Shown here piece by piece: positions 928-2,015 of a stretch of 4,271 nt of DNA. The stretch is from a virus (Duplodnaviria; Heunggongvirae; Uroviricota; Caudoviricetes). Both the position numbers and the translations under genes were made by a program. Within the stretch, counting starts at the first letter, position 1, and each line of letters begins with the position of its first letter. The DNA is taken from the IMG/VR virus record IMGVR_UViG_2648501110_000019; one strand, written 5' to 3'. The notes below the pieces were generated by a model, which was not told the DNA's origin, ran no database searches, and saw nothing but the letters and a program-made list of their open reading frames with translations.

Positions 928-1581
928 TTTTATTCCCGGCATAGATAAGAATAAGTCTTATTCTAACAATGCAGCCCTGTCGGTCATCAATCCTCTGCTT
1001 AATGGCAATGACAATTATCCGACTTAAATCACAAATCAGACACATGACATAACAGAGTTTGCGAGGTAACACATCGTCCGGTTTCTTCCACCATCGCACC
1101 GGACCAGCGACCATGAGGGGACAACGCCGCGCTCCGTTTACGCGGTAAACCCCGGTGTGTATCGTTTTTGATTATCCCCGCACACTCTCGCAGAGGAGTC
1201 TCCCTGTCGGGCTGCGGTCTCTGTTAATGCAGGAATACGGCGACAATACCGCGCATGGATAATAAGGTCGCTCAACACACTGGCTGTAATTCAGCGGATA
1301 CCATTCGGCATTTATCAGTATTCATCACACACTCAACGGTGAATTCTTCATGCGTGGCATTCACTTCATATGTTCGTGAATAACATTCAGTGCATTTACC
1401 TCTGAACACCTCTTCAATCACTCTTCCAGGAAGAACCCTTTTCGTTTCTCAGCGCCTGAGCGCTTTGTACTACCTTGCTGATACGGGCGTTTTTTTAAAT
1501 TGCGCCCTTAAGACAGTGATCTACTTAACCAATGGATCTCTCCTGTTGGAAAAGACCCTATTCCTGCCCCAACACCCAATC

Positions 1582-1599
1582 CCCCCTTACCCCCCTTAC
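1582..1599. repeat. Tandem direct repeat CCCCCTTAC x2 inside a C-rich polypyrimidine tract (about 1566-1610)
   Basis: Read directly: ccccccttac cccccttacc ctcttcccca. The strong C/T bias is atypical of the surrounding sequence. Confidence 0.5.
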
Positions 1600-1671
1600 C
1601 CTCTTCCCCATAAAAACGTACTACTTCCCTAGTACACATGAGGAGTTGGGTCAGTTGGTTGCCAACCTGAA

Positions 1672-1721
1672 CAGGCACCTTTAAGCCTGCTTCTGTTCGG
1701 GTACCTTTAAACCCGAAACAG
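1672..1721. repeat. Two tandem stem-loops with identical 8-nt loop ACCTTTAA and different stems
   Basis: Hairpin 1: CAGGC(1672-1676) ACCTTTAA(1677-1684) GCCTG(1685-1689). Hairpin 2: CTGTTCGGGT(1693-1702) ACCTTTAA(1703-1710) ACCCGAAACAG(1711-1721), about 10 bp with one bulge. Hairpin 2 spans the stop codon (1707-1709) of the 102-aa minus-strand ORF. GAACAG (1669-1674) can alternatively pair with CTGTTC (1693-1698). Confidence 0.6.
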
Positions 1722-2015
1722 TGAGGAGCGCGATTGCGATCCAGCCAGGGGAGGTTCGGCTGTATACCCCTGTAAAGCTCTGCCCTGATTTCTTACAAAC
1801 AGGCGGAGCCTTGTGTTTGCTTCGTGCCTTGCTCTGTTCTCCTTGCGGAATGAAACAGGCTCAGCGTCAAAAGTGATTTCGTATACCTCCGCATATTTCA
1901 GGGCAACCTTCCGTCTCAGTGACGGAGGCAGCCCCTGTAACTGCTGCTGAATCCACTCTTCGTCTGCCTGGCAGTACCTAGATGGCATCTCTGTCTGAAC
2001 GTAATTCTGGGACAT
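1707..2015 (-). CDS. Hypothetical protein, 102 aa, in the gene position downstream of cro; possibly C-terminally truncated or degenerate
   Basis: ORF-track ORF 1707..2015 (-). ATG 2013-2015 is preceded by AGGTGAAGG about 9 nt upstream. Overlaps the 3' end of the Cro-like gene by 38 nt in another frame. The N-terminal 60 aa look protein-like; the C-terminal tail (QGYTAEPPLAGSQSRSSLFRV) is low-complexity and runs into the hairpin region. No family recognised. Confidence 0.45.
   Translation of the reverse strand: MSQNYVQTEMPSRYCQADEEWIQQQLQGLPPSLRRKVALKYAEVYEITFDAEPVSFRKENRARHEANTRLRLFVRNQGRALQGYTAEPPLAGSQSRSSLFRV

Follow-up and report, generated by a model that had tools for sequence, protein, structure and literature searches.

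A lambda-like prophage very probably disabled by a single 8,876-bp internal deletion

The stretch of DNA analysed here (the window, 4,271 nt) is very probably the centre of a lambda-like prophage from which 8,876 bp were lost internally in one event, by illegitimate recombination at a 2-bp microhomology. Alignment against intact related prophages, which the initial annotation had proposed as a check, placed the breakpoint at 1416/1417. The results showed that positions 1416-4177 matched L007 10600-7839 with 99.93% identity and that positions 1-1420 matched L063 8927-7508 with 99.86% identity, L007 and L063 being loci of one E. coli contig, UGBS01000001.1. Since both flanks of the window match loci of this same contig, the segment absent from the window relative to it is exactly L007 10601-19476 (8,876 bp). 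The prophage of UGBS01000001.1 is the undeleted form of the same element, 99.9% identical on either side of the scar, with two real substitutions (positions 128 and 3160) across ~4.2 kb.

Positions 1416-1417, no strand: deletion junction with a 2-bp TT microhomology and GAAGAG hexamers near both ends.

The junction contained no long repeat, its homology being confined to the 2 bp, and an identical junction 40-mer was found in two independent IMG/VR contigs, L015 and L016. These observations bear on whether the join might be an assembly artefact, in which two lambdoid prophages of one genome were fused into a chimera. Such genomes do hold several similar prophages, the region of the TonB_C gene described below occurs twice in UGBS01, and a suspicious 'n' join exists elsewhere in L016. 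Nevertheless, the occurrence of one identical junction in the window, L015 and L016, which are separate assemblies, the different integrase arms of L015 and L016, the restriction of an insertion sequence to the window and the lack of a long repeat at the join make an artefact extremely improbable. The identification of the breakpoint and the intact parent makes the deletion usable as a lineage marker.

The window and the intact relatives were compared for the genes on either side of the deletion. The overlapping 102-aa ORF that the initial annotation had reported after cro was found as described, sharing 38 nt with the 3' end of cro, and the 3' end of a second ORF lay against the scar.

Positions 1707-2015, minus strand: orf102 (102 aa), an intact conserved phage gene (phrog_852, E=4e-41).
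Positions 1272-1420, minus strand: surviving 3' part (49 codons) of a 74-aa ORF, which corresponds to the L007 gene 19401-19625 and is cut at 19477.

Homologues of orf102 numbered 467 in Enterobacterales, with 35 invariant columns, and the identical protein occurred in 1,616 collection blocks. Its AlphaFold model showed three helices (pLDDT 62), while the Pfam scan gave no family above threshold and sequence comparison gave no relative in the PDB. The gene is the first of a replication module and not a decay product. According to the gene tables of L007 and L063, the missing 8.9 kb carries genes for a DEAD-box helicase, a primase, a 285-aa product, the Q antiterminator, a 65-aa product, a SASA esterase, a holin, a DUF1327 protein, a lysozyme and Rz, as well as the first 76 nt (5' end) of the 74-aa ORF, which lies after Rz. 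The remnant of this ORF matched phrog_2571 (E=1e-14), and its region was 98.5% identical to Stx2a phages, the match stopping at 1420. Helicase and primase genes followed orf102 in all 10 E. coli relatives, in 21 of 22 loci from other species, in three annotated phages out of the four examined and in one Salmonella plasmid; in phi467, one additional ORF lay between orf102 and the helicase-primase pair. The intact UGBS01 prophage and the relatives E110019, phi467, Fostie, YP3 and ENT39118 retain the 8.9 kb that is gone from the window, and these five relatives have the module orf102-spacer-helicase-primase in common with the window lineage. The event was therefore a loss and not a gain, as indicated by the helicase-primase genes after orf102 in the relatives and by the 74-aa ORF cut at the junction.

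No replication genes, as expected downstream of cro in a lambdoid prophage, were present in the window, and their absence is due to the deletion. Similarly, the Q antiterminator and the holin/endolysin/Rz cassette expected upstream of cos were not in the window and all lay within the missing L007 10601-19476. The proposal in the initial annotation that lytic functions had been deleted past cro was thus borne out, helicase/primase, Q and lysis genes all being missing in comparison with the relatives. Genes essential for lytic growth, namely those for replication, Q and lysis, have been lost. These results establish the deletion, its endpoints and its gene content. Judging from the roles of these gene classes in lambda, the prophage would be unable to replicate, activate its late genes or lyse the cell, and the deletion could serve as a natural replication/Q/lysis-null allele.

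The gap could also be read without any deletion: the phage would be a viable mosaic, with different modules elsewhere in its genome providing the replication, Q and lysis functions. Lambdoid phages are highly mosaic, and the two halves of the window matched different groups in the phage collection. Against this, the two halves occur together, separated by 8.9 kb, in one known prophage (L007/L063; 99.9% identity), a conserved ORF is interrupted at the junction, and the leftward arm in L016, L018 and L007 contains no replication, Q or lysis genes. A mosaic origin is accordingly very hard to credit. In the preferred reading, a single deletion, the gene order across the scar on the minus strand (the rightward direction of the phage) runs from cI through pR, cro, orf102 and a non-coding element of ~300 nt to the scar at 1416/1417, and beyond it from the 3' end of the post-Rz ORF through the TonB_C gene, a DUF3950 gene and cos to Nu1, A, W and B outside the window.

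The DNA beyond the scar was found to belong to the late region of the phage.

Positions 1-90, minus strand: lambda-type cos, left genome end (right half of cosN and start of cosB), equal to lambda J02459 90-1 with 98.9% identity.
Positions 91-402, minus strand: right-end (cosQ-side) region, diverged from lambda (~69% identity to lambda 48169-48502; 99.86% to L063).
Positions 328-468, plus strand: 46-aa DUF3950 gene (YlcI/YnfO family; PF13132, E=8e-19).
Positions 601-927, minus strand: TonB_C lipoprotein gene (108 aa, ORF open to 942; PF03544, E=2.4e-15; lipobox).
Positions 943-1271, minus strand: native non-coding spacer upstream of the TonB_C gene, collinear with L007 19626-19969 and with L063 (>99.8%).

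The 12-nt cohesive end GGGCGGCGACCT was read directly from the sequence at 79-90 on the minus strand. Positions 1-300 had been considered a cloning-vector or plasmid segment, a candidate that was dropped because the sequence is lambda cos, as in cosmids; odd matches to Bacillus and Paenibacillus 'plasmids' arise since cosmids carry lambda cos. The 46-aa DUF3950 gene, called at the equivalent place in L059, L062, L063 and L065, is a usual resident between the lysis genes and cos. The TonB_C gene had a promoter-like site of its own at 987-960 in the promoter scan and lay between phage Rz and Nu1/terminase in all eight genomic contexts; it was present in Stx phages too. Because of this placement and this occurrence, the gene is phage accessory ('moron') cargo between Rz and cos and not host DNA. 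The initial annotation was right to call it TonB-like and a lipoprotein gene, given its TonB_C domain and lipobox, and wrong to call it unrelated to the phage; its annotation is now corrected from host neighbour to phage cargo. The PHROG label 'Rz-like spanin' for this protein was also dropped, as the Pfam TonB_C match is specific and the true Rz is separate in the relatives.

The DNA beyond the window edges was inferred from L015, L016 and L063, each 99.9% identical to the window. In both L015 and L016, which have the same junction, Nu1 (181 aa), A (641 aa), W (68 aa) and B lay to the left of the window and were about 99.7% identical to lambda (99.7-99.75%). L015 extends to gene C, where the contig ends, and L016 stops inside gene B at an 'n' and a 73-nt repeat. 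Thus cos is followed by the Nu1/A terminase and head genes, with the terminase seen in L015/L016 and not in the window's own source. Integrase genes were found outside the window in the relatives (428 aa in L016; 392 aa in L018/L007).

The cos site, the repressor and the integrase of L016 and L018 would suit a satellite-like parasite, one that keeps cos, int and the repressor and, like a cos-type phage-inducible chromosomal island, relies on a lambdoid helper for packaging. Release and transfer have been reported for defective O157 prophages (PMC2669165). Such islands are recognised by a replication module of their own together with the lack of terminase and capsid genes of their own; the element has no replication module, and L015/L016 carry Nu1, A, W and B at full length. 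The full-size terminase and portal genes kept in these contigs, with no redirecting of a helper's, and the origin by one recent deletion from a normal phage make the satellite interpretation highly unlikely.

The same late-region DNA decides against the initial annotation's own interpretation, in which the prophage ended just past cro as a domesticated immunity remnant and the TonB-like gene was a host neighbour. The missing replication, Q and lysis genes after cro and orf102 and the intact cI and cro are in its favour. However, the breakpoint is internal, with phage late-region DNA and cos (79-90) beyond it, so that the element is not truncated just beyond cro. Nor is the immunity region all that was kept: the post-Rz ORF remnant, the TonB_C gene, the DUF3950 gene and cos are retained, and Nu1-A-W-B(-C) follow in L015/L016. 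Late-region DNA, cos and terminase, in place of flanking host genes, thus come after the immunity region. The initial annotation had named intact replication and morphogenesis genes just beyond the window edges as evidence that would overturn it; morphogenesis genes come close to this through L015/L016, and replication genes were not found.

Domestication fared no better. With differences from the intact prophage only at the two positions given above, there has been too little time for visible selection, and none of 5,426 complete E. coli genomes contained the junction, nor did the GTDB representative genomes or the JGI metagenomes. In the databases searched, it is known from the window and the two IMG/VR contigs only, and exact-protein look-ups for two ORFs spanning the deletion junction and the insertion-sequence junction returned no records. 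Neither the rare junction nor the two substitutions indicate long-term retention of, or selection for, the deleted form. Together with the cos match at 1-90 and the placement of the TonB_C gene between Rz and Nu1 in prophages and Stx phages, these results leave the domesticated-remnant interpretation with very little probability. The near-identity to intact phage argues for recent decay, the sequence pattern giving no support to domestication; the element is very probably a recently crippled lambda-like prophage and not a domesticated immunity island.

The initial annotation had described about 765 bp without a convincing ORF, and the stretch was confirmed as 943-1706 (764 bp), whose longest ORFs (80-83 aa) had no matches. 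It is made up of native orf102-helicase spacer (291 bp), the remnant of the 74-aa ORF (149 bp) and the native spacer that precedes the TonB_C gene (329 bp); it is not decayed coding sequence. The spacer after orf102 contained the following features.

Positions 1416-1715, minus strand: non-coding element, the complete conserved core of the sequence that in intact phages separates orf102 from the helicase gene (sequence conservation and consensus fold).
Positions 1581-1601, minus strand: conserved block, reading GGGGGGTAAGGGGGG on the transcribed strand.
Positions 1667-1713, minus strand: twin hairpins whose stems co-vary and whose loop, UUAAAGG, is near-invariant; the loop of the first hairpin contains the orf102 stop codon.

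Phages of E. coli, Yersinia, Cronobacter and Salmonella share the element at 1416-1715 with 85-95% identity, and it was conserved across the loci of 21 species. The deletion removed only the last ~120 nt of the spacer, a leader of the E. coli type that contains the ribosome-binding site of the helicase gene. The block at 1581-1601 is the 'C-rich tandem repeat' of the initial annotation: a repeat is present, though only a tiny one (CCCCCCTTA x 2.3, TRF score 42), and the block was among the most conserved parts of the spacer: in an alignment of 22 spacers, ranging from Pantoea to Yersinia, it hardly varied (a one-base difference in four). The hairpins reported earlier were also recovered, the twin hairpins among them. 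In these, 95% of cells were paired, 6 of 12 pairs showed compensatory changes and none of 500 shuffles was equally good; nine G.U mispairs versus zero A.C pointed to the sense strand. A nutR/nutL-type pair was considered for the twin hairpins and rejected, as no second copy of the motif occurred near pL. The consensus fold of the whole spacer comprised 40 pairs, 13 of them with compensatory changes, and further features were a near-invariant GGGGGGUAAGGGGGG tract (G6TAAG6), a long-range helix enclosing a domain of ~180 nt and a predicted GGGAAGAG/TTCTTCC pairing. Rfam 15 covariance models gave nothing beyond chance-level matches at E<=1 for the window or E<=10 for the full L007 spacer, and a literature search for the G6TAAG6 motif yielded vertebrate mitochondrial control regions only.

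These results suggest that the element is apparently a deeply conserved, structured, non-coding one that heads helicase-primase replication modules, the spacer adjoining one replication module over a range that extends from Yersinia and Erwinia to E. coli. We tentatively propose, as a possibility that is less than even, that 1416-1715 (minus strand) is an undescribed structured cis-acting RNA heading the helicase-primase module in many enterobacterial temperate phages. G-rich RNA-DNA hybrids occur at ColE1 and mitochondrial origins. Possible roles of the spacer include a leader governing replication-gene expression or, by analogy with such origins, an RNA that might aid origin priming or opening. 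If the spacer is a regulatory RNA or an origin, the control of a common, unstudied lambdoid replication module would be explained.

No intrinsic terminator was predicted on the minus strand from 1706 to 942, and transcripts from pR would run towards the TonB_C gene and cos/terminase. Rho-dependent termination is possible in this 760-nt untranslated stretch. With the complete spacer element now placed between the SOS-inducible pR and the TonB_C gene, cos and terminase, DNA damage could switch these on without Q.

The immunity region and the start of the leftward operon were found to be preserved up to a second lesion.

Positions 1978-2265, minus strand: Cro-like repressor (95 aa, YdaS family; PF15943, E=1e-14; phrog_35), of the same length as in L007.
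Positions 2266-2384, no strand: cI-cro control region, with a pR-like promoter at 2316-2288 (minus strand) and the operator palindrome ATCGGAAAGCCGAT at 2336-2349.
Positions 2385-3077, plus strand: CI repressor of 230 aa, intact, combining an HTH with a self-cleaving S24 domain that is LexA-like (PF00717, E=7.5e-17; phrog_4, E=1e-53).
Positions 3096-3171, plus strand: cI terminator (3096-3113), then a pL-like promoter TTGACA-17-TATTAT (3143-3171), from promoter and operator scans.
Positions 3212-4012, plus strand: first three genes of the pL operon, encoding a 139-aa HTH protein and two 63-aa proteins (PF01381 with phrog_4836, phrog_4587, phrog_6882).
Positions 4174-4271, plus strand: left end of an IS66-family insertion sequence, starting GTAAGCG, with the tnpA ATG at 4255 (100% identity to L014 19539-19442).

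The profile match to the YdaS family upheld the earlier call of a cro-like gene, and cI, cro and orf102 showed zero substitutions relative to L007. The pL-like promoter was flanked by two operator palindromes (3130-3143 and 3155-3168), and the palindrome ATCGR-N4-CCGAT at 2336, 3130 and 3155 gave six strand-hits (three sites on both strands) versus 0.38 expected. The region thus has divergent CI and Cro repressors with operators common to the rightward and leftward early promoters. The earlier claim that the repressor, cro and a downstream operon had been kept holds for cI, cro and the operon start, which are intact; the operon is an ordinary repressor-controlled pL operon with the gene order of the relatives, and it is cut at 4174 by the IS66-family element. 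All phage relatives dropped out of homology at 4174-4177, the L014 match adjoins IS66 tnpA/tnpB/tnpC, and the element occurred in the window only, L015 and L016 being free of it. This insertion is a second, independent lesion that cuts the pL operon after its third gene. An intact, SOS-cleavable CI would still be made, and immunity to phages of the same immunity type is expected; DNA damage would still derepress pR (cro, orf102) and pL. Retained immunity, SOS derepression and the read-through described above are all expected by analogy with lambda.

The element was compared with known systems. The Sp prophages of E. coli O157 Sakai are lambda-like and have been disabled by internal deletions and IS insertions while keeping much of their genome, and many of them are still inducible and released from cells, as reported by Asadulghani et al. 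2009 (PMC2669165). Both types of Sakai lesion are present here, in the form of the 8.9-kb deletion and the IS66-family insertion. Unlike in the Sakai prophages, replication, Q and lysis genes were lost together, and from this gene content self-driven release appears very unlikely.

The cryptic prophage Rac is an old, fixed remnant. The window element, unlike Rac, is ~99.9% identical to intact phage and rare. The two have in common that they are defective prophages with the immunity switch kept, and in Rac of E. coli K-12 (RacR/YdaS/YdaT) the genes for the repressor and for a Cro-like protein of the YdaS family are arranged divergently, as here; many E. coli genomes carry racR, which is essential in K-12 (PMC5700373, PMC5917428). 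In contrast to Rac, the repressor of the window is a 230-aa S24 self-cleaving CI, and orf102 (phrog_852), the gene after cro, had no YdaT family match in the Pfam scan, the one search on which this comparison is based.

With lambda (J02459), the element has in common the map order of pL operon, cI, cro, early-right genes, lysis genes, cos and Nu1-A-W-B. The immunity region, orf102 and, in the intact relatives, the helicase-primase module are unrelated to cII/O/P of lambda. The window lineage also differs in having the TonB_C lipoprotein gene between Rz and cos, a place on the lambda map presumably occupied by bor.

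The initial annotation described the sequence accurately, recognizing genes for CI and Cro, an overlapping 102-aa ORF (orf102), about 765 bp without a convincing ORF and a TonB-like gene; the tandem repeat that it listed is present but tiny (a 9-nt unit × 2.3). The features of the window, in which the minus strand is the rightward direction of the phage, are listed below.

328-468, plus strand: DUF3950 gene, 46 aa
601-927, minus strand: TonB_C lipoprotein gene, 108 aa
943-1706: stretch without a convincing ORF, 764 bp, made up of the next three features
943-1271: native spacer upstream of the TonB_C gene, with a promoter-like site
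1272-1420: 3' remnant of a 74-aa ORF
1416-1706: native spacer after orf102
1707-2015, minus strand: orf102, 102 aa, with a 38-nt overlap with the end of cro
1978-2265, minus strand: Cro-like gene of the YdaS family, 95 aa, divergent from cI
2385-3077, plus strand: CI repressor, 230 aa, with HTH and LexA-like S24 domains
2336-2349, 3130-3143 and 3155-3168: operator-like palindrome ATCGR-N4-CCGAT

On the far side of cI lie a terminator, a strong promoter-like site and three small genes. One copy of the palindrome lies between cI and cro, and two more lie around the promoter on the downstream side of cI, giving 6 strand-hits (3 sites, both strands) compared to 0.38 expected. This arrangement indicates that the downstream operon is an ordinary repressor-controlled leftward (pL) operon.

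No match to the full window was found among complete E. coli genomes, plasmids or phage records, and every strong match ended at 1416-1420. Positions 1416-4174 matched prophages such as that of E. coli E110019 (99.7%), while 1077-1420 and 316-1253 matched Stx phages, in which the counterpart DNA follows the Rz lysis gene and precedes the terminase genes. An exact look-up of the 102-aa protein returned ten E. coli chromosomes, and in all ten orf102 was followed by a 413-bp gap, a 552-aa DEAD-box helicase, a 322-aa primase, a 285-aa protein and the Q antiterminator. One of the ten, contig UGBS01000001.1, carries both halves of the window at two loci: 1416-4177 corresponds to L007 10600-7839 (99.93%) and 1-1420 to L063 8927-7508 (99.86%). 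The window therefore lacks exactly L007 10601-19476, or 8,876 bp, comprising the helicase, primase, 285-aa gene, Q, a 65-aa gene, a SASA esterase, holin, DUF1327, lysozyme, Rz and the first 76 nt of the 74-aa ORF. These results bore out the earlier proposal that lytic functions were deleted after cro. The joint reads ...GGAAGAGTGATT followed directly by GAAGAGGTG...; TT is all that the two parental ends have in common, and GAAGAG hexamers lie close by, a signature of illegitimate recombination.

The junction 40-mer was not found in GTDB representative genomes or JGI metagenomes, nor the junction in 5,426 complete E. coli genomes. Two IMG/VR contigs, L015 and L016, do have the 40-mer, and they align with the window over 4.17 kb at 99.9%. 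Leftward of window position 1, L015 and L016 both carry Nu1 (181 aa), A (641 aa), W (68 aa) and B, about 99.75% identical to lambda, and L015 reaches gene C before the contig ends. Window 1-90 is the lambda left end (98.9% identical), a lambda-type cos site with the cohesive end GGGCGGCGACCT at 79-90; because the window starts inside it, spurious matches arose to cosmid-contaminated "plasmid" records of Bacillus, Paenibacillus and Rahnella. The TonB_C gene, previously called unrelated, lay between Rz and Nu1 in 8/8 genomic contexts examined, usually with the 46-aa DUF3950 gene alongside, and belongs to the phage as an accessory gene rather than to the host. PHROGs places it under "Rz-like spanin" (phrog_1267), an apparent annotation carry-over from gene position, since the true Rz in relatives is a separate gene upstream. 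On the right, L016 and L018 carry the remaining pL arm and an integrase. With packaging genes, cos and a phage-borne TonB_C gene on one side and the pL arm and integrase on the other, the deletion is internal and the element continues beyond the cro region.

The two contigs that share the deletion differ in their integrase ends (428 aa in L016, 12412-14009, vs 392 aa in L018 and L007), indicating that the deleted element, or its left arm, recombined after the deletion. In L016 (1-74, 9969-10041), lambda gene B stops at lambda position 4148; one "n" comes next, and after it 73 nt that exactly repeat part of the pL-arm Band_7 (SPFH) gene. Either an artefact of scaffolding or an additional rearrangement could account for this break.

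Leaving aside effects of the junction, the window differed from its relatives at only two positions. At 128 it is unlike L015 and L016, and hence apparently L063; at 3160 it has C compared to T in L007, L015 and L016, in the spacer of the third operator site (3155-3168), a pL operator, and within the pL promoter spacer. L015 and L007 were 100% identical over 3.9 kb, and cI, cro and orf102 showed zero changes. With divergence this small, the intactness of the genes is uninformative on selection. Domestication, in which kept genes benefit the host, was thus not supported, and the sequence pattern points to recent decay. Of the initial interpretation, the deletion of lytic genes stands; a remnant truncated just beyond cro and keeping the immunity region alone does not, as the loss is internal and recent and cos and the packaging genes are retained.

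The last part of the window, from 4174 on, matches the left end of an IS66-family element at 100% identity; this end begins GTAAGCG and has the tnpA ATG at 4255. All phage relatives, L015 and L016 included, go on as phage DNA at this point, so only in the source strain does the pL operon break off after its third gene. Since L015 and L016 have the deletion but not the insertion, the insertion is a later, strain-specific event.

Orf102 belongs to phrog_852 (467 homologues, 35 invariant columns) and is a real, conserved gene. Positions 1416-2057 are common to relatives with different cI/cro types, and orf102 moves with the replication module, not with the immunity region. The "low-complexity tail" of the protein reflects a TCA codon where the stop is usually TGA, so that five more codons (SLFRV, 1707-1725) are translated, up to a TAA that lies within the first conserved hairpin, in its loop; in alignments A2 and A3, many homologues stop at least five codons sooner, at 97 aa or fewer. 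Searches for Pfam and PDB relatives found none, and the structure model comprised three helices (pLDDT 62).

The spacer after orf102 (about 300 nt, 1416-1715, minus strand; L007 10310-10722) also occurs in loci L032-L057. Identity was 85-95% among phages of E. coli, Yersinia ruckeri and Cronobacter and a Salmonella plasmid, and the spacer was recognizable in loci of 21 species (Pantoea to Serratia and Yersinia), in every case with an orf102 homologue on one side and helicase-primase on the other. It contains the palindrome GTACTAG...CTAGTAC, a near-invariant tract GGGGGGTAAGGGGGG, which is the C-rich repeat noted initially, and twin hairpins with a near-invariant UUAAAGG loop and co-varying stems. 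In the hairpins, 95% of cells were paired and 6/12 pairs had compensatory changes, whereas 0/500 shuffles were as good and slid controls were only 28-49% paired. Nine G.U and zero A.C mispairs indicate the transcribed strand. RNAalifold folded the sense strand better (40 pairs, -29.6 kcal/mol, 13 with compensatory changes, including a predicted long-range helix GGGAAGAG/TTCTTCC) than the antisense strand (22 pairs, -17.4 kcal/mol), the fold being predicted from and tested on the same alignment, whose two main clades represent few independent events. There was no Rfam match, and a role at the DNA level, such as an origin, is possible. The spacer is a conserved, apparently structured non-coding element of a widespread enterobacterial phage replication module. 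The deletion falls just 3' of its conserved core, leaving the element whole in the window. The prophage deletion itself is ordinary; the conserved spacer is the one item deserving follow-up.

In Citrobacter sp. Awk 4 (L038 1008-4352), an orf102 homologue has tail-fibre-like and tail-fibre-assembly-like ORFs behind it in place of helicase-primase, which suggests that, independently, another internal deletion began in this spacer region. Such losses recur.

The prophage would be unable to replicate, activate late transcription or lyse. CI, with its S24 domain intact, should still confer immunity, and SOS induction should derepress pR and pL. Transcripts from pR would now cross orf102, then the conserved element, and head for the TonB_C gene and cos/terminase; along this path, where Rho-dependent termination is possible, the minus strand has no predicted intrinsic terminator. 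Rac is a classic remnant with a YdaS-type cro (PMC5700373, PMC5917428). There are well-documented cases of lambdoid prophages made defective by deletions and IS insertions, some of which stay mobilisable, aided by other prophages (PMC2669165).
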